Origin: an uncultured Gammaproteobacteria bacterium
GTDB lineage: Bacteria; Patescibacteriota; Patescibacteriia; UBA9934
DNA: 64,000 bases
Direction: 5' to 3'
Assembly (NCBI GenBank): GCA_964613815.1
Contig: CAZTKG010000003.1
Coordinates: forward strand, 125,440-189,439
In this document: positions 1,837 through 30,659 of the stretch, piece after piece
Layout of the letters: each line of letters opens with the position of its first letter
Numbering within the stretch: position 1 is the first letter of the stretch
The notes under the pieces: generated by a model
The model's database searches: none
What the model saw: only the letters and a program-made list of their open reading frames with translations
Told to the model about the DNA's origin: nothing
Made by a program: the position numbers and the translations under genes

Positions 1837-2721
1837 ATGTCTACGATTTTTGAAGCTCTGCAATGGGCTCAGGAGGAGATTAAGTCTACTTCGCATGAGC
1901 AAGTGAATAAGCCGAATGCGATGATTGAGGCGCAGATGCTTTTGCGTCATGTTTTGGATGTGCCGGCGGCGCATTTGTTTTCGCACTTTAGTGATTACGT
2001 GGCCGCTGATAAGTTGAATGCGTATACGGATTTTGTGAAGCGGCGAGCGGCGCATGAGCCGATTGCTTATATTTTGGGGGAGAAGGGGTTTTATGGGCGG
2101 GACTTTGTGGTGACGGCTGATGTTTTGATTCCGCGGCCGGAGACGGAGCTTCTTGTGGAGGCGGCGATGGAGATTATTGATGAGGATACCGCGGTTCTGG
2201 ATGTTGGGACGGGGTCTGGAGCGATTGGGATTACGCTTGTGAAGGAGGTTGGGTGTGAGGTAGTCGCTTCTGATGTTTCTGTGGATGCGTTAACTGTCGC
2301 AAGGCGGAATGCGGAGAGATTGAAGGCTGCTGACAAGATTCGATTTCTTGAGGGGAGTTTGTTGGAGCCGTTTTTTGCTTCTGACTTGATCAACCGCGAG
2401 CACAAGACGATGGTGATTTGTGCGAATCTGCCGTATGTGAAGATTGATGCCTGGCCGTCGCTTGATCCTGATGTGAGGCAGTTTGAGCCGAAAAAGGCGA
2501 TCGTTGGCGGAGCTGATGGACTGGATTTTTATCGGGAGCTGCTTGGGCAGATTTCTGCGCGGCGGGAGATCTTTCCTCGGGCGCTGTTTGTGTTGATGGA
2601 GATTGATCCTGGGCAGGAACTTGGGGCGCCACGGATGGTGGAGGAAGTGTTTCCTGGGGCGATTGTGGATGTGCGGGAGGATATGAGTAAGCGCGCGCGA
2701 CTTGTTGTGGTACGGTGCTGA
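1837..2721 (+). CDS. prmC: release factor glutamine N5-methyltransferase
   Basis: SAM-MTase GxGxG (LDVGTGSGAIG), an NLPY (NPPY-type) motif, and the conserved position after prfA. Confidence 0.9.
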   Translation: MSTIFEALQWAQEEIKSTSHEQVNKPNAMIEAQMLLRHVLDVPAAHLFSHFSDYVAADKLNAYTDFVKRRAAHEPIAYILGEKGFYGRDFVVTADVLIPRPETELLVEAAMEIIDEDTAVLDVGTGSGAIGITLVKEVGCEVVASDVSVDALTVARRNAERLKAADKIRFLEGSLLEPFFASDLINREHKTMVICANLPYVKIDAWPSLDPDVRQFEPKKAIVGGADGLDFYRELLGQISARREIFPRALFVLMEIDPGQELGAPRMVEEVFPGAIVDVREDMSKRARLVVVRC

Positions 2722-2722
2722 T

Positions 2723-3103
2723 ATGAAAGAAGTCTCTGATGAAATTCATGCGTATTTAGAGGCTCGTGGATGGGTACCGACGTCTGCTTCGACGATTGCG
2801 AAGGGGATCAGCATTGAGGCGGCGGAGCTTTTGGAGCATTTTCAGTGGGACGAGGTGGCGTTTTCTGATCTTGATCCCGATTCTGAACGAGCTCGGAAGA
2901 TTCGGCATGAGCTAGCGGACGTGATGATTTATTGTTTGCAGATGGCTCGGTATCTTGGCGTGGACGCAGAAGATGTCGTGCGCGAGAAAATGCGGAGACA
3001 GGAAGAGAAATATCCGGTTGAGAAGGTTCGTGGCATGGGAACCGCCTATTATGAGATTCGAGATGCTGCAAGATCATCAGACTGGGATCAAAAAACAGCC
3101 TAG
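2723..3103 (+). CDS. MazG-like nucleoside triphosphate pyrophosphohydrolase
   Basis: EExxE(L)ADVMIY helical MazG core. Confidence 0.7.
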   Translation: MKEVSDEIHAYLEARGWVPTSASTIAKGISIEAAELLEHFQWDEVAFSDLDPDSERARKIRHELADVMIYCLQMARYLGVDAEDVVREKMRRQEEKYPVEKVRGMGTAYYEIRDAARSSDWDQKTA

Positions 3104-6485: not shown

Positions 6486-9518
<3,033 letters not shown>

Positions 9519-9541
9519 AGAGCTTTTGATAAAACAGCGGT

Positions 9542-9570
9542 GATTGTCGCTGTTTTTGATTTAACCCTTG
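9542..9570 (+). terminator. rho-independent terminator after gyrB
   Basis: aaacagcg-gtgattgt-cgctgttttt. Confidence 0.5.
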
Positions 9571-9600
9571 TCAAAAACGCTTATTTGTTATACATTCTAG
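9570..9600 (+). promoter_or_regulatory. candidate sigma70 promoter for secE-nusG-rplK
   Basis: TTGTCA-N17-TACATT. Confidence 0.35.
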
Positions 9601-9639
9601 TCGTTGCCCACCAGGGCTTTTTTGAAAACTCAAAAATTT

Positions 9640-9846
9640 ATGAAATCAGCTAGTTTTGGATCTGTTATCAAGTATTTTCGGGAGGCGAAACAGGAACTTG
9701 AAAAGGTTACCTGGCCGAATCAGAAGGAGGTTACTCGGTACTCGATTCTATGTATCGTCATCAGCGTTCTTGCTGGAGCTTACTTTGGCGTCCTGGATCA
9801 GATTCTTAGCTATTTCGTTGAGGTTCTCGTGAACCTCGCTAACTAA
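9640..9846 (+). CDS. secE: preprotein translocase subunit SecE
   Basis: Small single-TM protein directly upstream of nusG with a conserved KEL..V.WP motif. Confidence 0.75.
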   Translation: MKSASFGSVIKYFREAKQELEKVTWPNQKEVTRYSILCIVISVLAGAYFGVLDQILSYFVEVLVNLAN

Positions 9847-9852
9847 ATTACT

Positions 9853-10398
9853 ATGGCAAAACAAACAGCGAATTACGGTCGACGCTGGTACGCGATCCAC
9901 ACCTACTCTGGCTATGAGGAGAACGTGTGTGAAAACTTGATGCAGCGTATTGAGACCATGGACATGGAGGAGAAGATCTTTCAGGTCCTTGTTCCGAAGG
10001 AGAAGAAGATCAAAATCAAGAATGGAAAGCGACGGATTGTTGAGGAGAAGATTTTTCCAGGATATGTGCTCGTTGAGATGATGGTGACTGATGACTCTTG
10101 GTATGTTGTGCGAAATACGCCAAACGTGACGGGATTTATTGGCGCTGGGACCACCCCTACACCGATTGCTGAGCAAGAGATTGAGTCTCTTATGAAGCGG
10201 ATGGGTGTGGAAGATCCTGAGTTTACGCTCGATGTACGTGTTGGTGATCCGATCGCGATTACTGACGGGCCGTTTAAGGATCAGCAAGGAAAGGTTTCTG
10301 AGATCGATGAGCAGCGCGGAAAGATCAAGGTTCTTGTTTCCATGTTTGGTCGAGAAACTCCGCTTGAGCTCGACTTCTTGCAGGTTAAGAAAGTTTAG
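9853..10398 (+). CDS. nusG: transcription termination/antitermination factor NusG
   Basis: WY.I.T.SG.E NGN domain plus a KOW motif. Confidence 0.9.
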   Translation: MAKQTANYGRRWYAIHTYSGYEENVCENLMQRIETMDMEEKIFQVLVPKEKKIKIKNGKRRIVEEKIFPGYVLVEMMVTDDSWYVVRNTPNVTGFIGAGTTPTPIAEQEIESLMKRMGVEDPEFTLDVRVGDPIAITDGPFKDQQGKVSEIDEQRGKIKVLVSMFGRETPLELDFLQVKKV

Positions 10399-10426
10399 TC
10401 CTGATTCCCCTATAGTAAATTGAAAT

Positions 10427-10849
10427 ATGTCTAAAGAAATTGTCAAAGTTCTCAAAGTTCAGGCTCCTGGGGGAGGGGCTACTCCTGCACCGCCGCTTGG
10501 GCCAGCGCTCTCGCAGTATGGTGTGAATATTCAGCAGTTTGTGACTGATTTTAACGCGAAGACACAAGATCGTCGCGGCGAGACCGTCCCGGCTGTGTTG
10601 ACGATCTATGCTGATCGGACGTTTAGCTTCATTTTGAAGACGGCGCCGGCTAGTGACATGATCAAGAAGGCCGCTGGGATTAAGAAGGGGTCTGGAAAGG
10701 CTCTTACAGAGAAAGCAGGATCAATCACGAAGGCTCAGCTGCAGGAAATTGCTGAGGCGAAGATGGTTGACTTAAATACCAATGACGTTGAGATGGCGAT
10801 GCGGATTATTGAAGGGACCTGTCGTCAAATGGGCGTTGAGGTGAAATAA
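10427..10849 (+). CDS. rplK: 50S ribosomal protein L11
   Basis: Conserved PPLGPALSQ motif. Confidence 0.95.
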   Translation: MSKEIVKVLKVQAPGGGATPAPPLGPALSQYGVNIQQFVTDFNAKTQDRRGETVPAVLTIYADRTFSFILKTAPASDMIKKAAGIKKGSGKALTEKAGSITKAQLQEIAEAKMVDLNTNDVEMAMRIIEGTCRQMGVEVK

Positions 10850-10858
10850 CCCAAATCT

Positions 10859-11263
10859 ATGAAAGGTGCACAGGAGGTTCTCATTAAAATCTATTTCTTG
10901 CTTGTTTCGATTATTACGCTGATCATGATTCTCGTTGTCGGATCTGGCCTGCTTGATACGGGGCTTCGGGCGTATGTGTTTCCGAATGCGAACCAACCTT
11001 CTCACGTGAAGCTTTGTGATGCGGATTCGAATGACCTGCTATTTAAGAGCGATTCTCCCACGACGCTGGAGATCGAGACCGCGATCACTGAATGCGACAC
11101 TTACAACGTGGAACAGATGTATCGGTATGAGGTCAATCAGGCCCAGGATGCCGTCCGAAATCTCTCGTATCTGATCGTTGCGCTTCCGATCTTCTTCCTT
11201 CACTTCCGGATCATCCTTCGTGAATGGCGGGGCCGGGATAACAAGAAACCTGCAAAAAAATAA
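10859..11263 (+). CDS. hypothetical small membrane protein inserted between rplK and rplA
   Basis: Two hydrophobic segments. Fills a 460-nt gap in an otherwise conserved operon. The alternative start at 10922 has no better support. Confidence 0.35.
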   Translation: MKGAQEVLIKIYFLLVSIITLIMILVVGSGLLDTGLRAYVFPNANQPSHVKLCDADSNDLLFKSDSPTTLEIETAITECDTYNVEQMYRYEVNQAQDAVRNLSYLIVALPIFFLHFRIILREWRGRDNKKPAKK

Positions 11264-11315
11264 CTAATTACTGTGGGAGCTGATCTTCAGCGCTTGAACC
11301 ACTAACGAAACCATT

Positions 11316-11993
11316 ATGCCTAGTAAGCGTTTTAAGGAGATTGTTAAAGGAGTTGATAAGGATAAGAAATACGGGCTAGATGAAGCTATTGAGCTTTTGA
11401 AGCAGGGGGCTACCGCGAAGTTTGACGAGACGGTTGAATTGCACTTTCAGCTTGGGATTGATCCGAAGAAGAGTGATCAGCAGATTCGTGCGACACTCGT
11501 GCTTCCGCATGGGACTGGGAAGACGAAGCGTGTGATCGTGTTTGCGGATAGCGCGAATGAATCAGCTGCGAAGGAGGCTGGTGCTGACATTGTTGGGACT
11601 GAGGAGACGATTGCGGAGATCGTGCAGAAAGGCGTTATTGACTTTGATGTTGCGATCGCTGTGCCGACGATGATGCCGAAGCTTGCGAAGGCTGCGCGTG
11701 TTCTTGGACCTCGTGGACTTATGCCGAACCCGAAGACGGATACGGTAGGAACGAATATTGCGAAGATGGTTGCAGAGCAGAAAGGGGGGAAGATCTCGTT
11801 TAAGAACGATAATACGTCGAACTTGCATATCGCTTGTGGAAAGGCCTCGTTTGAGACCCCGAAGTTGAAGGAGAATCTTGAGACAGTGATTGAGGCTTTG
11901 AAGAAATCTAAGCCTGCTGCTTCTAAGGGGATATTCATTAAGAAGGCGATCTTGACGAGTACGATGGGAGCGGGGATTGCGCTTGAGGTTTAG
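11316..11993 (+). CDS. rplA: 50S ribosomal protein L1
   Basis: Global similarity to L1, ending GAGIALEV. Confidence 0.95.
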   Translation: MPSKRFKEIVKGVDKDKKYGLDEAIELLKQGATAKFDETVELHFQLGIDPKKSDQQIRATLVLPHGTGKTKRVIVFADSANESAAKEAGADIVGTEETIAEIVQKGVIDFDVAIAVPTMMPKLAKAARVLGPRGLMPNPKTDTVGTNIAKMVAEQKGGKISFKNDNTSNLHIACGKASFETPKLKENLETVIEALKKSKPAASKGIFIKKAILTSTMGAGIALEV

Positions 11994-12000
11994 TCGGTCA

Positions 12001-12032
12001 TTAAAAATAGAGCTTGAGGGCTCTATTTTTTT
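12001..12032 (+). terminator. rho-independent terminator after rplA
   Basis: aaaaatagagc-ttgagg-gctctattttttt. Confidence 0.5.
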
Positions 12033-12036
12033 ATCT

Positions 12037-12114
12037 CGTCATTGCGAGCGTAGCGCGGCAATCTTGCGGTTGTGCCTCGCGGATTGGGATTGCCGCGCTA
12101 CGCTCGCAATGACA
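12037..12114. repeat. perfect 26-bp inverted repeat (GTCATTGCGAGCGTAGCGCGGCAATC) with 26-nt spacer
   Basis: The two arms are exact reverse complements. It lies between rplA and dcd. Confidence 0.8.
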
Positions 12115-12152
12115 GTGCTTCGTTTGCCTCGTTATGATAAAGTACTTTCAAT

Positions 12153-12827
12153 ATGATTTTGACTCGTGATGCTATTTTGGCGCGGATTCGGAAGGGGGAG
12201 CTTGTTTTTACTCCGGGGGTTGATCGGTTTCAGTTGCAGCCGCATGCGATCGATTTGCGGCTTGGGTATCGGTTTTTGATTCCGAAGAATTGGTCGGTGA
12301 CGGAGAGGGGGAGAGAGGCGATTCAGATATCGATAGAAGAGGAGTCTCGGCATCGGGAGCAGTTTGAAGAGGTTGTTTTGGAGCCTGGGCAGTATTTTGA
12401 CTTGTTGCCGAATGAGTTTGTGATTGCGACGAGTTTAGAGCATCTGGAGCTGAATGCGCCGGATTTGATGGCGCTTTTGTTTCCTCGGACGAGTACGAAT
12501 CGGCGGGGGATTAATCTTTCGCTCTCGGGGATTATTGATACGGGGTATCATGGGAATTTGATTTTTCCGATGAAGAATGAGGCTGGGGATCAGGTTTTGC
12601 GGCTTTATCCTGGGGAGCGGATTTGTCAGGTTATTTTTGAGACACTCGATGCGCCGCTCAGTAAAGCGGCTGCACAGATGCACGGGATGAGTCCTGCGAA
12701 GTATTCTCATGCGGCAGATTCCGCCTATCGAGTTGATAAGTCTGAAGAGCGAGAACGGCTTGTGGCGGGGGATTTGGAGGGGTTAAAATCAGCCTTTGGG
12801 GTCGATTTGGACGAGGACTCGGCCTAG
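12153..12827 (+). CDS. dcd: dCTP deaminase (dCTP deaminase/dUTPase family)
   Basis: Dcd/dUTPase fold motifs (GxIDxGYxG-like IIDTGYHGNL). Confidence 0.8.
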   Translation: MILTRDAILARIRKGELVFTPGVDRFQLQPHAIDLRLGYRFLIPKNWSVTERGREAIQISIEEESRHREQFEEVVLEPGQYFDLLPNEFVIATSLEHLELNAPDLMALLFPRTSTNRRGINLSLSGIIDTGYHGNLIFPMKNEAGDQVLRLYPGERICQVIFETLDAPLSKAAAQMHGMSPAKYSHAADSAYRVDKSEERERLVAGDLEGLKSAFGVDLDEDSA

Positions 12828-13712
12828 GTGGTCTAGAGCTTCTTCGGGGGAGTTGTATTCGATGTGGTAGATGACTCCAGGGTTTCCTCGGACGAATCTT
12901 GATAGTTTTGTGCCTTTTTTAGACATGAGCACGATCTGCTTGTTGTTTTTTTCTGCGAGGACGATTTCGCCACCGGCGCCTAGCGATGGGTAGGTGACTT
13001 CGGCGATTGTCATGTCTCGATTTGAGGCGTTTTCGAATCCGATGTTGTAGATTTCTTCTGGCGTAAGATCTTTTGCGACCTCTGGATCTGTATGCTGGTG
13101 GGGGACGTAGGCGTTGATCCCGAAGGATTCGCAGACACTTCCGATCGCTTCTAGGTAGCTTAGGAAGTCCTGACGGTCTTGTTGCGGGATGTTTGTGAGA
13201 GCGCTTGCGATGTAGGCGGTTTTTATTTTAACGCCAAGGACTTCGCCGTAGACTTTTTCTCGGGTGAATTCTTCTTTTGCGCCTTTGAGGAGGTAGACGT
13301 CTTTGACGCCGGCGTCTATTAAGACGTCCCAGCAGTATTTGCAGCACCACCAGTGGCCGTAGAGGTAGAGGTCTGATCCTTGGGTGTCGCGCCCTAATGA
13401 TTTTGCCACGTTGACGACGGTGCACTCTGCGTGTCCTGGAGGGTCGTGGACGGCGCAGAGGTCGTAGCCTTGGCCTGTGGGCGCGTCGTGGACGTAGCGC
13501 TTGCAGATGATTCTGGCACTTCGCCCCTTATTGAATCCGTTTCCAGCGCATGCGATTTCTACAGAATCTTTCACTAAACAGGCGCCGATTGGATAGAGCC
13601 GATCGCCGGACAAGTGATGACGCGCGAGCTTAGCCCGCTGCATGAATTTATTGTCTAGTGTCGTAAAACGAATTTCTTTGCCATCGGGAAGGTAAGGGTA
13701 CTCAATTTTCAT
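12789..13712 (-). CDS. dCMP (deoxycytidylate) deaminase fused to a C-terminal Rossmann-like domain of uncertain function (nucleoside 2-deoxyribosyltransferase / DNPH1-like)
   Basis: N-terminal GACLVKD...HAEC...CCKYC zinc-deaminase motifs (CDA fold). The extra ~140 aa is a C-terminal alpha/beta domain (KTAYIASALT...). Confidence 0.7.
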   Translation of the reverse strand: MKIEYPYLPDGKEIRFTTLDNKFMQRAKLARHHLSGDRLYPIGACLVKDSVEIACAGNGFNKGRSARIICKRYVHDAPTGQGYDLCAVHDPPGHAECTVVNVAKSLGRDTQGSDLYLYGHWWCCKYCWDVLIDAGVKDVYLLKGAKEEFTREKVYGEVLGVKIKTAYIASALTNIPQQDRQDFLSYLEAIGSVCESFGINAYVPHQHTDPEVAKDLTPEEIYNIGFENASNRDMTIAEVTYPSLGAGGEIVLAEKNNKQIVLMSKKGTKLSRFVRGNPGVIYHIEYNSPEEALDHLGRVLVQIDPKG

Positions 13713-14211
13713 AGGGTTTGAGATGAAGCAGTGCCGCTTCTCCCCCTAGCGATTCTTGCGAGATTAGGTCTAGTTTTACTGGATTAATACCGTCTGCGAG
13801 CCCCACTCCCCTGCCGAAGAGGATGGGCTCTATGGTGAGAAAATAGTCGGTGATGAGGCCTGCGTCGATGAATTGTTTGTAAATTTGGCCTCCGCCGGCG
13901 ATGACGCATGACTCGAATCCTCTGCCCTTTAGGCTGGAGATGATGTCTTCTGGTGTGACTGATGTATATTCTAGCTCGCCATGAATGGATTCGTAGCGCT
14001 CTGGACTACGGGTCATGACGATATTTAGACGGCCTGGCAGCGGCCTTCCGATGGTTTCGTAGGTTGTGCGGCCCATGATGAGGACGCCAGCCTCTTTGGT
14101 CTTCTTTACGAAAAAACGCTTGTCAGATTTACTGGTCCAATCTGCAAGCTGGTCGGATTCTTCGGCGATTTTTCCGTCGAGGGTGATCGCGGCGAGAAGC
14201 CAAGTGTTCAT
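13702..14211 (-). CDS. folA: dihydrofolate reductase (DHFR/RibD C-terminal family)
   Basis: DHFR-fold motifs (LDGKIA, IMGRTTYE, AGGGQIY). Overlaps the ThyA-like gene, arranged as in thyA-folA. Confidence 0.75.
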   Translation of the reverse strand: MNTWLLAAITLDGKIAEESDQLADWTSKSDKRFFVKKTKEAGVLIMGRTTYETIGRPLPGRLNIVMTRSPERYESIHGELEYTSVTPEDIISSLKGRGFESCVIAGGGQIYKQFIDAGLITDYFLTIEPILFGRGVGLADGINPVKLDLISQESLGGEAALLHLKPYEN

Positions 14212-15056
14212 ACGGAGATTTTCATTTTTTTGAGCGACTTCATGGGCTTGTACTGGTCTTTCAGCGATTGCGCGATCTCTTTGACGAGACTCACGTCTTC
14301 TGCGAGCGCGCGTTCGAAAGACCTTTCCGGGAGACGAAGCTTGATCTCCTGATGGCGATGCGGCATACGGCTGATGAGGGTTTTGGCTTGGTCGTAGTGA
14401 TTTCCGTAGACATGTGCGTGCGAGATGGAAACGGTGTACTTCCCCACCCCGGCCCGGAGCTCCTGCGCAAGCATGGATTGCAGGAGCGCGAAACCGGCCA
14501 CGTCGTGGGGATTTCCGAGCATCATGTCATTTGATCTGAGAACGAGATGGAGATTTAGTTTTCCGCCGATGATGTTTGCTGTGAACGTAAATGGACATGG
14601 GACATTCTTCTTTTTGGGTGCGGTGAGGCCGTCTGAGGCCGGGTCCCACATCATCACCACTCCCTGGCGGGATGTTGGCTCTGTTTTGAGGTGGTTGACG
14701 AGGTCCATGAGCTGGTCGCGGCCGAAATGATGTCGCCAACGGTAGCCATAAGCGGTCTGCATGGTGTTGTCCTCCTCTGCGAAATCGTCCCAGATCTTGG
14801 TGAATTGTTGAACGAATGAAAGATCTTTTTGGCCCGTGATCATCCAAACCACTTCTGAGACAAATAGGCCTATTGGGATTCTTCTGAGAGTTAGGAGTGG
14901 GAATCCATCTCCTGGACTTAGCTCCATTGTCCTTCCTGGAAGTGCAGTGATGTTGATCTTGGTTCGCTCGTGAAAAAACTCGTCGCCATTGATCATAATG
15001 GCGGCGATCATATCCCTGTATTGCTGATCGTACTTTGTCATAACGGTTTTTTTCAC
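14208..15056 (-). CDS. thymidylate synthase-fold enzyme carrying a dCMP-type specificity signature (ThyA / dCMP hydroxymethylase / dCMP methylase family)
   Basis: Ungapped alignment to E. coli ThyA over the PC(H)...GKL..L.(Q)RS.D..LG.P(F)N..A..ALL block. The catalytic Cys, R166, S167, D169, H207 and Y209 equivalents are present. The Asn177 equivalent is Asp (GNPHD) and PCH is PCP. Confidence 0.8.
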   Translation of the reverse strand: MKKTVMTKYDQQYRDMIAAIMINGDEFFHERTKINITALPGRTMELSPGDGFPLLTLRRIPIGLFVSEVVWMITGQKDLSFVQQFTKIWDDFAEEDNTMQTAYGYRWRHHFGRDQLMDLVNHLKTEPTSRQGVVMMWDPASDGLTAPKKKNVPCPFTFTANIIGGKLNLHLVLRSNDMMLGNPHDVAGFALLQSMLAQELRAGVGKYTVSISHAHVYGNHYDQAKTLISRMPHRHQEIKLRLPERSFERALAEDVSLVKEIAQSLKDQYKPMKSLKKMKISV

Positions 15057-15120
15057 CCTAGCAAATCAACCTTTTGCTGCAATGATGGATTGTGGACAGA
15101 TCGAAATGCGGGTCTATTTT

Positions 15121-15129
15121 TGGTATAAT
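15121..15129 (+). promoter_or_regulatory. extended -10 element TGGTATAAT upstream of tmk
   Basis: TGnTATAAT consensus 10 nt upstream of the adjusted start. Confidence 0.4.
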
Positions 15130-15138
15130 GTGAGCGCT

Positions 15139-15936
15139 ATGAACGATCGATCGCGTTTTGTTGTTGTGGAGGGGATAACTGGAAGTGGAAAATCTACCTG
15201 CCTTCGTGCGATTCACGCGTATTTGGTTGATCAAGGCCTTCGTGTTTTTGATGCCCAAGCCTTTGCTGAGGAGTCGCACGATCCGCCGCATTTTGATAGC
15301 CATGGCGATTTTGATGTCTACTTTACGTTTGAGCCAACGAAATGGTGGGTTGGGCATGCGATTCGGAAGGAGATGTCGTTTGGTGATACGTACTCTGGAC
15401 TTGAGCAGGCGCATGCGTTTTCTCTTGATCGACTTATTCAGTACAGACGATTTATCTTGCCAGCGCTTCGAGCTGGAAAGACCGTGATTCAAGATCGGTG
15501 CGTGTCCTCCTCCCTCTTGTATCAGCCGATCATTGCCGGAGGTCCACATCAAGATGCTGTTGCCGCCCTCCCTGGGAATGCGCTTGCGCTCAAGCATGCG
15601 CCGGGGCATCTCATTGTTCTTGATCTGGATGCGAAGAAGGCTTGCGAGAGGCTGCAGGGGCGATTTGATGAATCTAAGGGCGTATTTGAGCAACTGGAGC
15701 TTTTACAGAATATTGATAAACGCATTCGCTCTGACTGGTTTCGTGACTTATTTACTTCGCGCGGCACGACAATTCATGCGCTTGATGCGGATGGTACGCC
15801 CGATATTGTTGCGCAGCGATCTATTGAACTTATCCAATCCATTATTCCCGACCTATGCCCGCAAAAAAACTCATCTCCGTTGGACAGCTCATTGACGAGA
15901 CGTGGGACCACTACCGTGCAAAGTTCCCAGACTTAA
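15139..15936 (+). CDS. tmk: thymidylate (dNMP) kinase family protein
   Basis: P-loop VVVEGITGSGKST and a DRCVSSSLLYQ (DRYxxSxxAYQ) motif. The start was moved to MNDRS. The 3' end overlaps the next ORF by ~80 nt. Confidence 0.7.
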   Translation: MNDRSRFVVVEGITGSGKSTCLRAIHAYLVDQGLRVFDAQAFAEESHDPPHFDSHGDFDVYFTFEPTKWWVGHAIRKEMSFGDTYSGLEQAHAFSLDRLIQYRRFILPALRAGKTVIQDRCVSSSLLYQPIIAGGPHQDAVAALPGNALALKHAPGHLIVLDLDAKKACERLQGRFDESKGVFEQLELLQNIDKRIRSDWFRDLFTSRGTTIHALDADGTPDIVAQRSIELIQSIIPDLCPQKNSSPLDSSLTRRGTTTVQSSQT

Positions 15937-21945: not shown

Positions 21946-22251
21946 TTGACGTGCAAGGGACTTGGTGATAGTCTTCGGGCGCAATGTGGAGGCCAAATGG
22001 CTTATGATAGCGGCGTCTCTCTGTGGAGAGGCTCTGGCGAGGAATACTGCATGAAGCACAAGATCTCGTTCCCGGGCATCAGCTGTCCTGACTGCCGATT
22101 CGAGATCAGGCGCAAGCTCGATCAGGAGCGCGCACTTGCCGAGAAGAAAGCGATTGTTGCCGCAGCTACTTCGGGGGCTACACGTCATCCGTTTGCGGTC
22201 GACGATCGTCAGCGTGAAGCCTGCAGCCCGGACGTTGACTCTCCTTCGTGA
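21946..22251 (+). CDS. hypothetical Cys-rich protein
   Basis: ORF with CPDC and CGG motifs. Weak support. Confidence 0.2.
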   Translation: MTCKGLGDSLRAQCGGQMAYDSGVSLWRGSGEEYCMKHKISFPGISCPDCRFEIRRKLDQERALAEKKAIVAAATSGATRHPFAVDDRQREACSPDVDSPS

Positions 22252-22344
22252 GAACCGCGTGATCGTGGTTCTTTTTTGTTTGAGAAAAAGATGACCGCGC
22301 CCGGGTTAGGGGCGCGGCTGAGAGTTGAGTCGTGTCACCACAGC

Positions 22345-23476
22345 CTAGGGCTTGGCGACGAACTCTCCGATGCGGAGGTTGAACCAGACACTGGGCCGCT
22401 TGGCATGGCTGTGCGTGATGGCGATGATGTTGCCACGGAGGTCCACGTCGGTGATGTTGCCGAGGTGGCCTCCGTACACGGCCTCGACCCACTCGTGCTC
22501 GTGGCGGTCGTAGTACATGATGCCGCCGCCGAACATGCCGCCACGGATCTCGTAGACCTCGACGTTTCTGGGGAGCTGGAGGCGCTGGCTCGGGTAGTAC
22601 TCGAGATCCTGCGTACGGGTGACGGTGCCGTTCTCGTAGGTGAGGATGTAGGACTCCCACTCGTCCTGCATGATGATGTTGGCTCCGTAGGGTGTCTGCG
22701 AGACGCCGACGACCGACCTCGCCGGGGTGGAAGCCGGGGCCGAGGGGGATGTTGGCGTCGACGGTGGCCAGAGTCTGGTAGGGCACGGTTCCGTCGGCGG
22801 CGGCCCAGCACCAGTGTCCGTCGATCTTGGCGAGGTACCGTTCTGGGGTGACATACTCGCCGTAGCCGGTGTAGATACGGAAGTACTGGCCGCCTTCGAT
22901 GTACTCAGTGGGCTCCCCACAGGGGACCTGGAAGCGGCCGGTGAAGAGGTTCAACAGGATCTCTTCGGGGTCGGTGTCGCGGGTCGCCAAGGCGTTCGGC
23001 GTGATGATGGTGCGACCGTGGTGCAAGTCGACCGCCTCGGCATGGCCGGTTCGGGGGCCCTTGTAGTACGCGATGTGCCAGTTGCCGCCCGCGTAGTACA
23101 GCATACCGTTGAAGCTGGCGGCGCCGGTGCTTGGGAGCATCGGGTAGATCGCCATGGTGTCGGTCTTGAGCAGGGGCTCCTGGACCATGCTGCCGGTCTC
23201 GCGGATGGTGACCAGCGCATCGCCTTCGGGGACGTACTGGTGCACGCCGCCTCCGGTGATGAGGAAGGTCTTTCCGTCCATGGTGACGAGGTCTTCGAAG
23301 CTGTCGTGGAGACTGAGGCTGACCGTGGTGCCGCCCGGGAGCTCGAGAGTCTCTTGGCGGACGCGACCGGGAAAGCTGACGTCGTGGATGAAGGTGCCGG
23401 CCGGCGTTTCGATGGTGTCGGCGCGGTCGAAGGGGGATGCGGCGAACGCGGTGGAAAGGGCGAGGGTCAACAGCAT
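22345..23476 (-). pseudogene. high-GC secreted protein gene split by a frameshift near 22700-22760
   Basis: The N-terminal part (signal peptide MLLTLALSTAFAAS...) reads in one frame down to about 22730. The C-terminal part (...TPYGANIIMQDEWESYILTYENGT...VAKP) continues in a second frame to the stop at 22345. The junction contains G/C homopolymer runs. Confidence 0.55.
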
Positions 23477-23915: not shown

Positions 23916-25100
23916 CTAATCGATGTCTTTTACGATTATTTTGATGTGGTCTTTGAGCGTTGGGACGCGCTTTAGCCAGAATGGGGTGAAGGAGATGCTC
24001 ACCTCTTCGATCGCGTTTGAGGACTCTAGGATGGTTTCTACTTCTTGCGGCGCGCGGCCGAGGAAGCGTTCTTTGTCTAGGATGTCGGATGCTGTACTGA
24101 TGACTGCGATGCCGTCTAGGTAGACGGAGAGAGATGCCGTGCCTTGGTTTGGGTTTGAGTTTTGGACTTCGATTTGGAGGCCCTCGTCGTTTACTTTGGC
24201 GATTTCGTAGCCTTCTGCGACGCGGGTTTGGAGTTCTGCTCTGGCGTAGTCTGCGACGACTTCTTGGTCGAAGAATACCCCTGTGACAACAACGGAGAGC
24301 GAGACGGTGAAGGCACCTATTTCTGCGCCCGGTTCGCTATCTGCGACTTTTTCTGTGACCTCCGTGGTGTATTCTGCGTAGTCTAGGGCCTCGTCAACGC
24401 GTTCGGCGAGCATGGCTTTTGACTCTTCTAGGACCTCTTCTGTGAGCTCTTCTACAGCTGATTCTAGATCTGCTTCAGTGAGGGTTCGGATATAGACGAG
24501 GCCGCCGACCATTTGTTCAACGCTGACAGCGTAGACTTCTTGCTGACGTGACTCGTTAAGGCCTGGGATCGTGAATTGACTTGGACCGATTTCGCCGTCT
24601 AGACCTGGCTGGTCTGCGTGCGCGATGACGTCGATGGATCCGTTTGCTGGGACGGTTGTGCCTTCATCTAGGCGGAATAGGATGCCCTCTTCTGATAGCA
24701 AGCGTGTGGTTGCGACGAGCTGCTGGTCTTCGCCTGACTCGTTGATGAGCGTGACGAGGCCGCCCGCCTTTTGTTCCACTGCTTCAGCGCCTTCTGATGA
24801 GAGGGTGAAGGTCTTTCCTTTTGAAAAGGTGTCTTCGATGACGATTCCGGCGAGTTGGTTTGTGGATGGTGGGTTTGCGACCTCTACGGTGATGTTGGTG
24901 GAGACGACCTTTTCTGCTGGGTCGATCTTGATCGTGGCTTTGGATACCGATAGATACAAGACGATGATGAGCAATAAAAGCGCCCCTGCGACGAATAGGA
25001 GGGCGATTTTTTGGTAGATTCTGAGTGATCTTGAAAGCGGCTTTCCGCTTGATCTGGAGGATTTTCTTGCTTTGCTTAGAGACATACGCAAAATAGTCAC
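23916..25100 (-). CDS. hypothetical membrane-anchored extracytoplasmic protein
   Basis: Basic N-terminus, one TM helix, then a large acidic domain. Confidence 0.5.
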   Translation of the reverse strand: MTILRMSLSKARKSSRSSGKPLSRSLRIYQKIALLFVAGALLLLIIVLYLSVSKATIKIDPAEKVVSTNITVEVANPPSTNQLAGIVIEDTFSKGKTFTLSSEGAEAVEQKAGGLVTLINESGEDQQLVATTRLLSEEGILFRLDEGTTVPANGSIDVIAHADQPGLDGEIGPSQFTIPGLNESRQQEVYAVSVEQMVGGLVYIRTLTEADLESAVEELTEEVLEESKAMLAERVDEALDYAEYTTEVTEKVADSEPGAEIGAFTVSLSVVVTGVFFDQEVVADYARAELQTRVAEGYEIAKVNDEGLQIEVQNSNPNQGTASLSVYLDGIAVISTASDILDKERFLGRAPQEVETILESSNAIEEVSISFTPFWLKRVPTLKDHIKIIVKDID

Positions 25101-25162: not shown

Positions 25163-28100
25163 TTACCGCGAGAACATCACGTTCTGTTTCCCGACGATTT
25201 CTTGGATGCTTGCAATCACCTCCCCGTCTGGATCAATGAGATATTCTGTTTGGACTTTTCGGGAGCGCTCACCTGACCTTACGACGAGATAGACACGTTC
25301 TTTGCCGGGGTTTGCTTTTAGGAGCGCCTGCAGGTTTGTGATCATGTCTGGGGTTGGCTTTTGTGGGACGACGATGGAGACCCCCTGCATGACGAACGGA
25401 TTCATGATTTCGTTTTCACCGTCCTCTAATGACGGCCACATTCCTCGTTTTAGTGCTGACTTTACGATTGGCGTATCGGACTCTTCGAAACTCAGGAGTT
25501 GGTCGCACAGAATACTTCGACGACCTTCGTCGCCGTCTCGCACGGATACTTTTCCGGCGATGAGAGTAAGCTTTCCCTCGATGAGCTGATGCTGTATCTC
25601 TGCGAATATTTTCGGGAAGACAACGATCTCTAGCTCCCCTGCCCCGTCTTCTAGCTTCACAAAGGCCATGGGCTTTTGATGCTTCTTGGTCAGGATCTTT
25701 TTTACGGTACCGATGACACCAGCGACTTGGGTCATAGATTGGTTTTCCAGTCCTTGCACTGCCGATGTTTTGACAGTGAGATCTCCAAGAGTTTCTGAGA
25801 GGATTTTTCCTGGGTGGTTTGAGACGTAGATCCCGAGAAGCTCTTTTTCCCAAGCCATGAGTTCGCCTTTTGAGATCGGCTCTTTGACCTCTCTTAGGCG
25901 CAGCTTACTGTCTTGCATTGCTGGAGCCATGTCGAACATAGAGACTTGGTTCTGCTCCTTTTCTTTACTGATCTGCTTTGTGAAGAGAAGCATCTGGTCC
26001 AGGTTTGTGACCAAGCACTCTCTTTCTTCGAACCTATCTATTGCCCCTGACTTTGTAAGCGCCTCTAGGGCTTTTTTGTTTAGGGCGCTTGCTGGGACTC
26101 TGGATAGGAAATCTACTAAATCTACGAAATCTCCGTTTTCTTTTCGCTCCTGGACAAGCACTTTTGCAACTTCGTCTCCGTAGTTTTTGATGGCGCGAAG
26201 GCCCCAGCGGATGTTTCCTGTTTCTGGGACAACAGCGAAGCTTGGAAATGATTCGTTTACGTCTGGCGGGAGGACCTCGATACCAAGACGACGGCATTCT
26301 TCTACCTCGATCGTGATGCGGTCGATGTTTCCTGCGTCGGAGTTCATGAGGGCGGCCATGAAGGCGGATGGATAGTGCGCTTTGAGGTAGGCGGTCCAGT
26401 AGGCGATGGTTCCGTAGCAGGCGGCGTGGGATTTGTTGAATCCGTAGGCGGCAAAGTCTTCTAGTTTTTGGAAAATCTCTTCTGCGATGCGTTTTGGTAC
26501 GCCGTTTTCTACGGAGCCAGCAATAAACTTGACCTTCATTTTGGCCATCAGCTCGACGATCTTCTTTCCCATTGCTTTACGGAGCGTGTCCGCCTCTCCC
26601 CCGGTGAAGCCCGCCATTTCTTTGGAGATTTGCATCACCTGTTCTTGGTAGACGGGGATTCCGTAGGTTTCTTTGAACGAGTTTTCCATTTTTGGATGCT
26701 CGTATTCGATCTTTTCTTTGCCGTGCTTTCGCGCGATAAAGCTCTCGATGAACTGCATTGGGCCTGGGCGGTAGAGAGCCACCATCGCGATGATGTCTTC
26801 GAAGACGGTGGGTTTGAGTTCGCGGATGTAGCGCTTCATGCCGTCTGACTCGAGTTGGAAAACGCCAGTGGTGTCGCCGCGGCCGAGGAGTTCGAAGGTT
26901 TTTTTGTCTTCGAGGGGGATGTCTTCCACGACGACGGTGTCGCCGTAGACGGCTTTGATGACCTTGATCGCGTCTTGGATCACGGTGAGGTTTGAAAGGC
27001 CGAGGAAGTCCATTTTGACGAGTCCTGCGGCTTCTGCGGAGTTGAGAGAGTACTGGGTGACAAGGGCGGTGTCTTCTCTTTGGCCGGCTTGAAGCGGGGC
27101 GCGCTCGACGAGTGGCTTGTCTCCGACCACGAATCCGCAGGCGTGCTGCGAGGCGTGACGGGGGTTTCCCTCGATTTTCATGGCGAGGTCGATGACGCGG
27201 CGGGCCATGGCTTGGCCGTTGTAAAGCTGCTTGAGTTCTGGGTCTTCTTTGATGGCGATTCCGAGAGGCGTGTGGCGACCCTGTACGGGAGGTGGGACGG
27301 TTTTGGCGATAAGGTCTGCTTCGTCGTATTCGAGACCGAGGACGCGGGCAGCGTCGCGGACGGCGGCGCGGGGCATCATGGTTCCGAAGGTGATGATACC
27401 GGCGACGTGGTCGGCGCCGTATTTTTCCGTGACGTACCCGAGGACCTCCCCTCGCCTGGTGTCGGTGAAGTCTAGGTCGACGTCTGGCATGGAGATTCTG
27501 TCTGGGTTTAAGAAGCGCTCGAAAAGAAGGCCGTATTTGAGTGGGTCGATGTCGGTGATCTTTAGGGCGTAGGAGATGATGGAGCCTGCAGCAGATCCTC
27601 GGCCTGGGCCGACGAGGATTCCCTGGTCTTTTGCCCAGTTTACAAAGTCCTGGACGATAATAAAGTACGAGGCAAAGCCCATGTTTTTGATCACGCCGAA
27701 CTCGTATTCGAACCGTTCGAGTACTTCTTCTGAGAGATCGTTTCCGTAGCGTACTTTGAGCCCTGCTAGCGTGAGGTCGTGCAGGTAGTCGTCATCTGTC
27801 TTCCCTGGCGGCATCGGGAAGATCGGCAGGTAGTTGTTGCCTAAGTCCATTTCGAAGGTGACGGAGTCTGCCACCTTTTTTGTGTTCATGATGGCTTCTG
27901 GGATGTGCTTGTAGGCGTCGAAGATTTCTTGATTGCTGCACATGGAAAGATCCACATCCATTGGATTGGTTTGGCGGAAGCGTTCTAGCGTGCGGCCGCG
28001 TTGGATGCAGAGTTGGGCCTCGTATCCTTCTTTATCTTCTGACTTGATGTAGAACGAGTTGCGGGTGACGATGAGAGGAGCGCCGGTTTTTTTGCCGAAT

Positions 28101-28684
28101 TCGATGAGCTTTTCGTTGAGCTCAACTTGGCGGGCGTAGTCTGGGTGGTGAATGAGTTCTAGGTAGAAATTTTCCTCACCGACGATTTGTTGCCATTCAC
28201 GGAGGATAGACTCGGCCTTTTCGTGGTCGTCCATTGAGAGCGCTGAGGGGATTTGGCCTTTTGGTCCGCCTGATAAGACTGTAACGCCTTTGCCGTGGGA
28301 CTTCATGAACTCCATGTCGACGCGGGGCTTGTAGTAGAAGCCTTCGAGAAAGCCGGCGGTGGTGATTTTGAGAATGTTTTTGTAGCCGTCGTCGTTTCTT
28401 GCGAGGAGTGTTGCGCGGTGAGGGCGGCCGTCTAGACGTGAGCGTTTTAGGTGCATGCCGTGGACCGCGATGAAGGCGTCGAGGCCGATGATGGGCTTGA
28501 TCTCTGCCTTTTTGCAGGCTTTATAAAACTCCACGGCTCCATACATGGAGCCGTTGTCGGTAAGTGCGATTGCCTTCCCTCCTTGCTCGAGTGTGTGCGC
28601 GACAAGCTTCTTTGGGCTTGGTAGCGCTTCGAGGAGTGAGTAATGCGAATGCACATGAAGATTGACGAAATCTTCTGGCGTCAT
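25163..28684 (-). CDS. dnaE: DNA polymerase III subunit alpha
   Basis: PHP domain HVHSHYS at the N-terminus, then polymerase core, OB fold and other DnaE-wide similarity. The 90-aa N-terminal extension in the ORF track is a high-GC read-through and was removed. Confidence 0.95.
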   Translation of the reverse strand: MTPEDFVNLHVHSHYSLLEALPSPKKLVAHTLEQGGKAIALTDNGSMYGAVEFYKACKKAEIKPIIGLDAFIAVHGMHLKRSRLDGRPHRATLLARNDDGYKNILKITTAGFLEGFYYKPRVDMEFMKSHGKGVTVLSGGPKGQIPSALSMDDHEKAESILREWQQIVGEENFYLELIHHPDYARQVELNEKLIEFGKKTGAPLIVTRNSFYIKSEDKEGYEAQLCIQRGRTLERFRQTNPMDVDLSMCSNQEIFDAYKHIPEAIMNTKKVADSVTFEMDLGNNYLPIFPMPPGKTDDDYLHDLTLAGLKVRYGNDLSEEVLERFEYEFGVIKNMGFASYFIIVQDFVNWAKDQGILVGPGRGSAAGSIISYALKITDIDPLKYGLLFERFLNPDRISMPDVDLDFTDTRRGEVLGYVTEKYGADHVAGIITFGTMMPRAAVRDAARVLGLEYDEADLIAKTVPPPVQGRHTPLGIAIKEDPELKQLYNGQAMARRVIDLAMKIEGNPRHASQHACGFVVGDKPLVERAPLQAGQREDTALVTQYSLNSAEAAGLVKMDFLGLSNLTVIQDAIKVIKAVYGDTVVVEDIPLEDKKTFELLGRGDTTGVFQLESDGMKRYIRELKPTVFEDIIAMVALYRPGPMQFIESFIARKHGKEKIEYEHPKMENSFKETYGIPVYQEQVMQISKEMAGFTGGEADTLRKAMGKKIVELMAKMKVKFIAGSVENGVPKRIAEEIFQKLEDFAAYGFNKSHAACYGTIAYWTAYLKAHYPSAFMAALMNSDAGNIDRITIEVEECRRLGIEVLPPDVNESFPSFAVVPETGNIRWGLRAIKNYGDEVAKVLVQERKENGDFVDLVDFLSRVPASALNKKALEALTKSGAIDRFEERECLVTNLDQMLLFTKQISKEKEQNQVSMFDMAPAMQDSKLRLREVKEPISKGELMAWEKELLGIYVSNHPGKILSETLGDLTVKTSAVQGLENQSMTQVAGVIGTVKKILTKKHQKPMAFVKLEDGAGELEIVVFPKIFAEIQHQLIEGKLTLIAGKVSVRDGDEGRRSILCDQLLSFEESDTPIVKSALKRGMWPSLEDGENEIMNPFVMQGVSIVVPQKPTPDMITNLQALLKANPGKERVYLVVRSGERSRKVQTEYLIDPDGEVIASIQEIVGKQNVMFSR

Positions 28685-28726
28685 ATCACATTTTAGATTA
28701 GCAAAGATGTGGGAAAGAAAAAAGCC

Positions 28727-28762
28727 CCCGACGAGAGCTGGGCTCGATCGTCGGGGGGTGTG
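28727..28762 (-). terminator. rho-independent terminator after the 28782..29369 membrane gene
   Basis: Minus strand CCCCCGACGA-tcgagcccagctc-TCGTCGGGGG followed by CTTTTTT. Confidence 0.5.
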
Positions 28763-28781
28763 CCGTGGGCGGGCGCGTTGT

Positions 28782-29919: not shown

Positions 29920-30029
29920 GTCTTCTCCTGAAAAAGGACGCTTTAGACTAGATTTTTTCGCTGGGTTTGTCAAGAAGTAAATGAAAAACCCCGGCGGGCC
30001 AAGCTGGGCTTGGGGCCGGGGCGGACGCG

Positions 30030-30608: not shown

Positions 30609-30627
30609 TGAATGAACGGTGGTGGAT

Positions 30628-30659
30628 TACTATAGCGGAAAAATGTCGTTTTGTCAATA
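30628..30659 (-). promoter_or_regulatory. conserved promoter block (TTGACAAAACGACATTTTTCCGCTATAGT)
   Basis: -35 TTGACA, 17-nt spacer, -10 TATAGT, about 20 nt upstream of the paralog B start. Confidence 0.5.

Follow-up and report, generated by a model that had tools for sequence, protein, structure and literature searches.

An Asp-type ThyA-fold enzyme in a chromosomal gene cluster of Patescibacteria: a predicted dCMP methylase and a possible route to thymidylate via 5-methyl-dCMP

INTRODUCTION

According to the accepted view, cells make thymidylate via ThyA or ThyX acting on dUMP, and Asn177 of ThyA reads O4 and N3-H of the uracil. This study concerns a cluster of five genes on a 64,000-nucleotide stretch of DNA (hereafter the window; GenBank assembly GCA_964613815.1, contig CAZTKG010000003.1, positions 125,440 to 189,439, forward strand), in which a ThyA-fold enzyme has Asp in place of this Asn and is predicted to methylate dCMP. 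Thymidylate synthase (TS) becomes a dCMP methylase through the exchanges N177D and N229D (Liu and Santi 1992; Hardy and Nalivaika 1992; as cited in PMC8670742). When TS homologs from phage contigs with modified and with unmodified cytosine are compared, the two groups are best told apart at positions 177 and 147 (PMC8670742).

The closest described systems are those of Xp12-type phages. 5-Methyl-deoxycytidine (5mdC) was made in vivo by the Xp12 TS homolog and by five of seven metagenomic Asp-type homologs, 70% of the dCMP-deaminase genes on modified-cytosine phage contigs have a TS homolog no more than 3 kb away, and some phage deaminases favour 5-methyl-dC substrates (bioRxiv 10.1101/2024.12.05.627091). 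The same preprint proposes that phages gain dT nucleotides via deamination of 5-methyl-dC nucleotides, which fits older labelling of Xp12, and the same enzymes give Xp12-type phages both fully 5-methylcytosine (5mC)-substituted DNA and dTTP. More distant members of the superfamily, T4 gp42 and MilA, hydrate the intermediate and release tetrahydrofolate (THF); they have no need of dihydrofolate reductase (DHFR) and lack the C-terminal tail of TS (PMC5175136). The thyA gene of Patescibacteria has been treated as that of a normal dTMP synthase (PMC12455944), and our literature search found no paper noting Asp in a thymidylate synthase of Patescibacteria. The route via 5-methyl-dCMP, which an earlier note made from the sequence of the window had put forward as a hypothesis, is already documented in phages (Xp12; bioRxiv 10.1101/2024.12.05.627091) and has so far been described from phages only. 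What is new here is the cellular, housekeeping, and clade-wide setting together with two accessory components, the chemistry being already known.

RESULTS

Active site and fold of the ThyA-fold enzyme

The earlier note had listed five adjacent genes, for a dCTP deaminase, a dCMP-deaminase fusion, DHFR, the ThyA-fold enzyme, and a dTMP/dNMP kinase. Analysis with Pfam and NCBIfam recovered all five open reading frames (ORFs) with the folds named there (Table 1). The encoded proteins are all of small size and look soluble. The ThyA-fold gene had been started at 15056, where an in-frame GTG offers an alternative; the ATG at 15041 is the probable start, because homolog lengths match the 277 residues that result.

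Residue numbers of E. coli ThyA refer to a sequence identical to PDB entry 1aob. MAFFT was used to align the window protein with E. coli ThyA, T4 gp42, three enzymes of Xp12-type phages, and three homologs; Asp180 falls into the Asn177 column, as the note had proposed. When the protein was compared with PDB sequences by phmmer, the N229D mutant of the L. casei enzyme (1njc/1njd) topped the list, above the wild type, because "LGNPHDVA" of the query pairs with "LGVPFDIA". The best 120 homologs (58 to 100% identity), which come from Patescibacteria and are annotated as "thymidylate synthase", have Asp in this column without exception (120/120). A sequencing error or a pseudogene as the source of the Asp is ruled out by this conservation.

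Residues R21, E58, W80, Y94, R126, C146, R166, S167, D169, H207, and Y209 are all kept in the window protein, among them the catalytic Cys, Arg166, Ser167, Asp169, His207, and Tyr209 that had been singled out from the sequence; together with Glu58, Tyr94, and the fold, the latter six are the marks of the PF00303 superfamily. The pair that characterizes canonical ThyA, Asn177 plus His147, is replaced by Asp180 and Pro150. The further exchanges that had been noticed, PCH to PCP, Arg127 to Gln, and Gln165 to Leu (YQRS to VLRS), are likewise seen in the alignment. The active-site alignment had been described as gapless, which is true of the block from the catalytic Cys to Tyr209; directly ahead of the Cys the protein has a 4-residue insertion relative to E. 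coli ThyA, and the "RWR...DQ" loop carries a deletion. The equivalog models of ThyA in NCBIfam yield 125 to 154 bits against cutoffs of 325 to 405, and the broad model TIGR03284 is the only one to accept the protein. The AlphaFold2 (AF2) model, with a predicted local distance difference test (pLDDT) value of 95.7, matches ternary complexes of bacterial TS over the full length with template modeling (TM) scores of 0.80 to 0.85. We consider the ThyA-fold enzyme a predicted dCMP C5-methyltransferase that would release dihydrofolate (DHF).

Relationship to phage dCMP methylases

An exhaustive HMMER search was run against 1.84 billion cluster representatives (50% identity), and the best 150 were classified. 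The Asp type accounts for 126 of these 150 nearest representatives, with the earliest Asn-type sequence near rank 82. Among the 133 Asp-type sequences of the nearest-representative set, 106 carry Pro at position 147 and 101 carry Gln or His at position 127; of the 17 Asn-type sequences, 16 have His at 147 and all have Arg at 127. The window protein is nearer to the Xp12 enzyme (38% identity, E value of 8e-52) than to E. coli ThyA (about 30% identity) or T4 gp42 (25% identity over a partial alignment, E value of 1e-9), and it shares with the Xp12-type enzymes the combination of Asp at 177 and a residue other than His, mostly Pro, at 147. Its nearest annotated phage relatives belong to siphoviruses of Xanthomonas, Pseudomonas (Pamexvirus), Achromobacter, and Stenotrophomonas, in a family that includes Xp12 and PaMx74. 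The enzymes of Xp12, Mallos, PA_LZ02, and 83-24 all read "NVPCP ... LPYD", and the MAFFT alignment shows the "KNVPCP" insertion, the "YGYRWR-HFGRDQ" deletion, and the motif "HAHxY" as common to the window protein and the phage group.

A neighbor-joining (NJ) tree from Kimura distances, which was calculated without bootstrap and is indicative only, places the window protein in an all-Asp clade of 30 sequences nested in a clade of 120 members, of which 119 have Asp. The larger clade includes the enzymes of the Xp12/PaMx74 type but not E. coli ThyA. The Asp is a clade trait rather than a point change. The dCMP-specificity reading of the earlier note is reinforced by these comparisons: the Asp is kept, position 147 deviates as well, and the clade, as reconstructed, includes the validated Xp12 methylase.

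Several Asp-type representatives are fusion proteins, with a dCMP deaminase (P0145) or a PRA-PH/MazG-like pyrophosphohydrolase (P0226) joined to TS. In P0142 the partner is an HNH endonuclease, probably owing to a homing-endonuclease insertion or a gene-call fusion, and the closest representative (P0121, 50% identity) has an unassigned N-terminal region of 190 residues.

Conservation of the cluster in Patescibacteria

A scan of one genome per GTDB species, with a 10-sequence alignment and narrow patterns as the query, found a close relative of the window TS in at least 172 species representatives, a number that is a lower bound. From these, 80 loci with 8 kb on either side were sampled, spanning Uhrbacteria, Gracilibacteria, Peribacteria, Altimarinota (two complete chromosomes), Kerfeldbacteria, Dojkabacteria, and Paceibacterota; sufficient flanks are available for 42 of them. 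Near TS, these 42 loci have DHFR in 34 cases, a Dcd-like gene in 32, both DHFR and a deaminase in 29, tmk in 21, and an N-glycosidase domain in 14, and TS stands alone in eight. About 20 loci of Gracilibacteria and Peribacteria (L044 to L084 in part) have an Asp-type TS without nearby partner genes. Over all 80 loci, the deaminase domain occurs in 47, and when those lacking it were rescanned in six frames with a profile hidden Markov model under genetic codes 11 and 25, the same 47 were obtained. No second ThyA was detected by tblastn with E. coli ThyA, and no ThyX by tblastn with an approximate T. maritima ThyX query or by a scan for RHR-x7-S, in the 64-kb window or the 80 loci; both searches were local, not genome-wide.

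A number of GTDB representative metagenome-assembled genomes (MAGs) with the typical Patescibacteria cluster (L005, L008, L010 to L013, and others) are titled "uncultured Gammaproteobacteria bacterium", apparently a labelling error made systematically in a single series of submissions.

DHFR and the type of one-carbon transfer

The stop of the TS gene and the start of the DHFR gene overlap by 4 nucleotides (ATGA), in agreement with the overlap noted before, and the 3' end of the DHFR gene overlaps the start of the fusion gene by 11 nucleotides; the three minus-strand genes form a tight operon. DHFR finds its best PDB match in T. maritima DHFR (6e-28, full length) and keeps the catalytic Asp. 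In 60 of the 80 loci it adjoins TS, the median distance being about 10 bp. The window TS itself retains a tail of 35 residues past E. coli position 243, ending in KISV (compare KAPVAI). Because DHFR is translationally coupled and the TS-type tail is kept, the sequences indirectly favour reductive methylation over hydroxymethylation, as the earlier note had argued from the overlapping DHFR gene. In both respects the locus resembles the Xp12 type, at the level of sequence; the T4 gp42 type shares the Asp, but the tail and the coupled DHFR set the window enzyme apart from it, and its similarity is weak and partial.

Table 1. Features of the gene cluster and their positions in the window
Feature	Position	Strand	Basis
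Gene cluster, five ORFs with the expected folds	12153-15936		Pfam, NCBIfam
Dcd/dUTPase-fold protein, 224 aa	12153..12827	+	Pfam DCD 1.5e-26
DNPH1/MilB/BcmB-like nucleotide N-glycosidase domain (predicted), C-terminal in fusion	12789..13247	-	profile, fold
Zinc-dependent dCMP-deaminase-family domain, N-terminal in 307-aa fusion	13248..13712	-	Pfam PF00383 7.8e-10
Dihydrofolate reductase, 169 aa	13702..14211	-	Pfam DHFR_1 3.7e-18
ThyA-fold enzyme, Asp-type, 277 aa	14208..15041	-	Pfam PF00303 1.8e-54
Asp180 (E. coli N177)	14502-14504		codon GAC
Leu168 (E. coli Q165)	14538-14540		codon
Pro150 (E. coli H147)	14592-14594		codon
Cys149 (E. coli C146)	14595-14597		codon
Gln126 (E. coli R127)	14664-14666		codon
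Divergent intergenic region, TS operon/tmk	15042..15138	.	consensus scan
dTMP kinase (Tmk), 265 aa	15139..15936	+	Pfam PF02223 1e-21

A deaminase fused to a predicted nucleotide N-glycosidase

dCMP deaminases accept 5-methyl-dCMP. In mammals, DCTD deaminates 5-hydroxymethyl-dCMP (5hm-dCMP), and DNPH1 cleaves the resulting 5hm-dUMP; PDB entries label DNPH1 "5-hydroxymethyl-dUMP N-hydrolase". Of the "dCMP-deaminase fusion" in the earlier note, the deaminase half is intact, with His94, Glu96, Cys124, and Cys127 (H-A-E plus C-x-x-C), the signature of the CDA fold, invariant in the deaminase alignment. A profile search against PDB returned the dCMP deaminase of S. mutans first (1.3e-9), followed by the enzymes of PBCV-1, human DCTD, and T4 cd. 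The domain is 26 to 29% identical to the phage deaminases; the 5-methyl selectivity of the latter (mSCD) is polyphyletic, and no transferable sequence determinants were given (bioRxiv 10.1101/2024.12.05.627091).

The C-terminal half, which had been left without a name, is a predicted DNPH1/MilB/BcmB-like (deoxy)nucleoside 5'-monophosphate N-glycosidase. A single-sequence phmmer comparison reaches DNPH1 at an E value of 0.004, and a profile search at 4e-8, followed by BcmB (8e-7), BlsM, and MilB; homologs of the domain carry PF05014. The AF2 model (pLDDT of 89.5) has DNPH1, MilB, and BcmB as top Foldseek matches with TM scores of 0.68 to 0.82. The catalytic Glu249 is invariant, Tyr167 and the phosphate-binding residues Ser243 and Ser264 are conserved in at least 90% of the sequences, and Asp233 is present.

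The N-glycosidase domain occurs in 20 to 22 of the 80 loci and in three architectures. Besides the fusion described above, a stand-alone N-glycosidase is found in the cluster of a Dojkabacteria genome (L071), and a Kerfeldbacteria locus (L070:9569-11311, JACPGL010000008.1) has, in the place between the DHFR and Dcd-like genes, a 581-residue fusion of Amidohydro_1 with PF05014. Its amidohydrolase part is of the nucleobase/nucleoside-deaminase subgroup, with 5'-deoxyadenosine deaminase as the best NCBIfam model (254 bits, cutoff of 522), and the protein is a predicted non-homologous counterpart of the fusion in the window. Free-cytosine deaminases, too, are known in two folds, CDA and amidohydrolase, a point that speaks for a base-level route such as that of MilA/MilB (see Discussion). 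Because two unrelated deaminase folds join the same N-glycosidase, deamination and glycosidic cleavage would appear to be coupled. As a guess by analogy with the mammalian DCTD-DNPH1 logic, the N-glycosidase might clear off-pathway dUMP or 5-substituted dUMP; possible alternatives are cleavage of (5-methyl-)dCMP followed by deamination of the free base and transfer of phosphodeoxyribose onto a base.

The Dcd-fold protein lacks the catalytic Glu of dCTP deaminase

The first gene of the cluster had been called a dCTP deaminase, a name also carried by all 120 closest homologs in their annotation and one that the active site contradicts. The protein barely passes TIGR02274 (93.7 bits, cutoff of 92.8). 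In HMMER alignments to E. coli Dcd (reference sequence identical to 1xs1) and to 4xjc, Pro139 (codon 12567-12569) occupies the column of the catalytic Glu138; this column likewise has Pro in all 45 homologs adjoining an Asp-type TS and in all but one of the 120 closest (119/120). Kept are the Dut-type Asp129 (Dcd D128, Dut D90), which is invariant, and the R/S/R phosphate/base residues, and motif 4 is of the Dut/bifunctional type (GERICQ in the window, GER[IV]CQ in 120/120 closest homologs), so that the protein has the Asp and R-x-x-Q of dUTPases and bifunctional DCD-DUT enzymes and not the Glu138 of dCTP deaminases. Without the catalytic Glu it should be unable to deaminate by the known mechanism, while hydrolysis of the triphosphate is still possible; the protein is predicted to be a dCTP and/or dUTP diphosphatase rather than a dCTP deaminase. 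Conversion of dCTP to dCMP would mirror the phage hydrolase and feed the methylase, and conversion of dUTP to dUMP would be ordinary sanitation. A caveat to this prediction is that Dictyostelium Dcd2, from a CPR-related clade, rescues E. coli dcd, a report that gives no active-site information (PMC10733785). The 3' end of the gene overlaps the fusion gene convergently.

Upstream of this gene, a perfect 26-bp inverted repeat with a 24-nucleotide spacer (GTCATTGCGAGCGTAGCGCGGCAATC ... GATTGCCGCGCTACGCTCGCAATGAC) occupies window positions 12038-12113, between the terminator-like hairpin of rplA (12003-12030) and a promoter-like site of the Dcd-like gene (12109-12138). The repeat has no second copy in the window and no match in Rfam; it creates a spurious ORF of 59 residues (11977-12156).

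Human DCTPP1 prefers 5-modified dCTP. A small MazG-like NTP pyrophosphohydrolase (2702-3103, plus strand; PF12643 8e-18, PHROG "pyrophosphatase") is encoded 9 kb upstream of the cluster by a gene overlapping the end of prmC. Hydrolases of the MazG/PRA-PH type stand in Xp12-type phage modules, where the superfamily acts as dCTPases, and by analogy the window protein could supply dCMP or exclude 5-methyl-dCTP from DNA.

The divergent dTMP kinase gene

The tmk gene is divergent from the TS operon and present in 32 of the 80 loci. Its product scores at the border of TIGR00041 (83.9 bits, cutoff of 83.25) and has an insertion of about 50 residues. GSGKST, FSLDR, and DRCVSSSLLYQ align with the corresponding motifs of dTMP kinase structures, and the thymine-reading elements FSxDR and DRxxSSxxYQ are kept in PDB alignments with the T. 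thermophilus and S. aureus enzymes, as befits a dTMP kinase. The longest ORF starts at 15082; the ATG in Table 1 is the probable start because conservation in tblastn begins at 15136 and an extended -10 element lies just upstream. The latter (TGGTATAAT, ending at 15129) belongs to a promoter-like site that is a consensus match only and lies about 10 nucleotides ahead of the tmk ATG.

Genomic setting

The cluster is located in the core chromosome of a member of the Patescibacteria (Candidatus Uhrbacteria-like). Upstream lie nusG, rplK, and rplA, downstream two membrane protein genes and gatB, and the remainder of the window contains prfA, prmC, rplY, ftsW/rodA, gyrB, miaA, thrS, pheST, rseP, glmM, clpB, radA, and recG. 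Viral encoding, a trait of the Xp12-type methylases, is thus not shared by the window gene. A prophage or viral origin of the locus was considered and is ruled out by the housekeeping neighbours and the lack of a close IMG/VR relative, the top one reaching merely 43% identity to the ThyA-fold protein. Rfam returned no RNA element in the cluster region, and PHROGs gave only generic names for its proteins.

GC makes up about 50% of the window. Across window 1-64000, every 2-kb bin shows a positive GC skew despite genes on both strands, and only two bins (8001-12000) depart from a negative AT skew, a pattern consistent with a single replichore for the entire window. The most GC-rich part (0.56 to 0.59, compared with about 0.50 elsewhere) contains a series of large minus-strand ORFs of 394 to 1263 residues (22178-23476, 23916-25100, 25163-28954, and 29488-30726). 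Three of these, 22178-23476, 23916-25100, and 29488-30726, were scanned with Pfam and gave no match; the series may encode lineage-specific surface proteins.

DISCUSSION

A predicted route from dCTP to dTMP

The cluster may represent a housekeeping thymidylate module wired like that of Xp12-type phages and leading from dCTP via dCMP, 5-methyl-dCMP, and dTMP to dTDP, a reading in which our confidence is evenly divided. Its parts deserve separate weights: that the Asp-type TS performs a methyl transfer is very likely, that dCMP is its substrate is likely from the sequence comparisons, and dTMP is the probable main fate of the product. In the first step, the Glu-less Dcd-fold protein would convert dCTP (and/or dUTP) to the monophosphate, taking the place of the MazG/PRA-PH or HAD hydrolase of the phages. 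The Asp-type TS would then, to go by its residues and clade membership, turn dCMP and methylenetetrahydrofolate into 5-methyl-dCMP and DHF, and the translationally coupled DHFR, whose fold and residues are in place, would reduce DHF to THF. Deamination of 5-methyl-dCMP to dTMP would fall to the deaminase domain, as suggested by the phage analogy and the known acceptance of this substrate, and the divergently transcribed Tmk, with its thymine-reading residues, would form dTDP. The substrate assignments, the order of TS before deaminase, and the role of the cluster as sole thymidylate source are what we infer. The earlier note had left the choice between such a route and nucleotide-level synthesis of a modified cytosine; of the two, the thymidylate route is the better fit, given that the cluster conserves a deaminase and a thymine-type dTMP kinase, and modified-cytosine DNA fits less well.

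Several observations weigh against this route. Thirteen of the 42 well-flanked loci have no deaminase within 8 kb (five with DHFR, eight with TS alone), and two complete Altimarinota chromosomes are among the loci without one (L047 and L053; OZ245819.1 and OZ246423.1), where the order is TS-DHFR-Dcd-like. The absence of another thyA or thyX holds locally, for the window and the 80 loci. The gene content equals that of the canonical dUMP pathway, and the active-site signature alone argues otherwise; the substrate assignments derive from residue signatures and from relatives at most 38% identical, and the tree, without bootstrap support, is indicative. A dUTPase activity of the Dcd-like protein would yield dUMP, for which the proposed pathway has no use. 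The fused N-glycosidase could destroy the dNMP product, and the amidohydrolase-type deaminase joined to an N-glycosidase in Kerfeldbacteria is at least equally compatible with a base-level or catabolic role. Finally, the best-characterised phage deaminase, mSCD-B5, acted on 5mdCTP and not on 5mdCMP (bioRxiv 10.1101/2024.12.05.627091).

Alternative readings

In our judgment it is unlikely that the enzyme is an ordinary dUMP-dependent TS of the textbook pathway, in which Pro147, Gln127, and Leu165 would compensate for the Asp and the latter would be protonated or reoriented to read uracil. The exactly canonical gene content would suit such an enzyme, as would the catalytic residues, which are canonical apart from positions 177, 147, and 127; the Glu-less Dcd-fold protein with its Dut-type residues could be a plain dUTPase making dUMP, public annotation and the literature (PMC12455944) treat the thyA of Patescibacteria as a normal dTMP synthase, and the dCMP preference of the window enzyme is read from sequence alone. 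However, the natural Asp-type members of known activity all use cytosine nucleotides (T4 gp42, MilA, BcmA, the Xp12 enzyme, and five of seven MetaGPA homologs), and the N177D and N229D exchanges switch TS to dCMP, as cited in PMC8670742. Moreover, the window protein is grouped with the Xp12 enzyme in an Asp-type clade and has the same insertions and deletions, so that it is not a ThyA with one change, and the Asp is fixed over hundreds of species.

Somewhat less probable, and compatible with the thymidylate route, is a module that makes 5-methyl-dCTP for DNA, with 5mC in place of some or all C and dT as a deamination side branch. In that case the dCTPase that feeds the methylase and excludes dCTP from DNA would be the Dcd-fold enzyme, perhaps along with the MazG-like protein (2702-3103). 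We know of no cellular organism with complete base replacement. Yet the cluster has the full parts list of phage cytosine replacement (NTP pyrophosphatase, Asp-type TS, DHFR, and deaminase), which in Xp12-type phages yields fully 5mC-substituted DNA alongside dTTP (bioRxiv 10.1101/2024.12.05.627091), an additional MazG-like pyrophosphohydrolase lies 9 kb away, and our literature search found no contradicting base-composition or methylome data for Patescibacteria. Against it, the sole nucleotide kinase of the cluster keeps thymine-reading residues, with no kinase of the 5mdCMP type evident; weaker points are the GC content near 50% with no obvious strong 5mC-to-T decay and the many long-read MAGs and complete chromosomes that were assembled without reported anomalies. 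The bolder form of this idea, that Patescibacteria with the module replace chromosomal C wholly or largely by 5mC at the level of the nucleotide pool and draw dT from the same pool, is decidedly improbable; if true, these would be the first cellular organisms with such a genome base substitution.

Least probable, and in our view very doubtful, is a MilA/MilB- or BcmA/BcmB-like pathway in which a C5-modified cytosine nucleotide (methylated or, in a variant, hydroxymethylated) is split into free base and deoxyribose 5-phosphate and the base deaminated, with a catabolic or salvage output instead of dTMP: the C-terminal domain of the fusion is most similar to DNPH1, MilB, and BcmB and recurs in three architectures, including the amidohydrolase-type fusion, but it is present in just 20 to 22 of 80 loci, TS-DHFR-deaminase being far more general, DHFR coupling and a thymine-type Tmk indicate a nucleotide product, MilA and BcmA are hydroxymethylases without need of DHFR and with different C termini (PMC5175136), and free-base secondary metabolism by a minimal genome seems unlikely.

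Implications

If the thymidylate route via 5-methyl-dCMP is correct, at least 172 species-level genomes in several classes of Patescibacteria would make dTMP in this way, the labels "thymidylate synthase" and "dCTP deaminase" would be wrong for hundreds of database entries, and metabolic reconstructions of these minimal genomes would need revision. A standing pool of 5-methyl-dC nucleotides would raise the question of methyltransferase-independent 5mC in DNA, and the link between the modules of Patescibacteria and phages that of the direction of transfer. Candidates for biotechnology would include dCMP methylases, possibly 5mC-selective deaminases, Glu-less Dcd-fold pyrophosphatases, and deaminase/N-glycosidase fusions.

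Comparison with known systems

With canonical ThyA of E. coli and L. casei, the window enzyme has in common the full-length fold, the C-terminal tail, the pairing with DHFR, and the catalytic Cys and Arg together with Glu58, Tyr94, Asp169, His207, and Tyr209. It differs in the exchanges Asn177 to Asp, His147 to Pro, Arg127 to Gln, and Gln165 to Leu, in the 4-residue insertion, in an overall identity of only about 30%, and in its position outside the Asn-type group of the NJ tree (no bootstrap). T4 gp42, MilA, and BcmA have Asp at the specificity column and known cytosine-nucleotide substrates; unlike in the reaction predicted for the window enzyme, they hydrate the exocyclic methylene instead of reducing it, and the tail is absent or the C-terminal domain different. 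The Dcd-fold protein agrees with Dcd, DCD-DUT, and trimeric dUTPases in fold, in the equivalents of Arg110, Ser/Thr111, Ser112, Arg115, and Asp128, and in a Dcd-like lid, whereas its family (119 of the 120 closest homologs) departs from Dcd in having Pro for the catalytic Glu138. The fusion protein recalls the mammalian DCTD and DNPH1, as well as MilB and BcmB, in combining a dCMP-deaminase-family domain with a DNPH1/MilB-like domain that has the catalytic Tyr, Asp, and Glu and the phosphate-binding Ser; in contrast to the mammalian pair, both domains reside in one polypeptide, belong to a thymidylate-type operon, and occur in only part of the lineages.

The closest likeness is to the Xp12/PaMx74 module. 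Both have Asp177, Pro147, the same pattern of insertion and deletion, and a TS-type C-terminal tail, and in both TS, deaminase, and DHFR are adjacent with an NTP/NMP hydrolase gene alongside, the gene order in Xp12, Mallos, PA_LZ02, and 83-24 being hydrolase (MazG/PRA-PH or HAD)-TS-deaminase-DHFR. The module in the window differs in that its hydrolase is a Glu-less Dcd-fold protein, its deaminase is distant from those of the phages and fused to an N-glycosidase, and Tmk belongs to the cluster; and whereas the phage modules are viral, it lies on the chromosome of free-standing bacterial genomes, next to genes for ribosomal proteins and tRNA synthetases.

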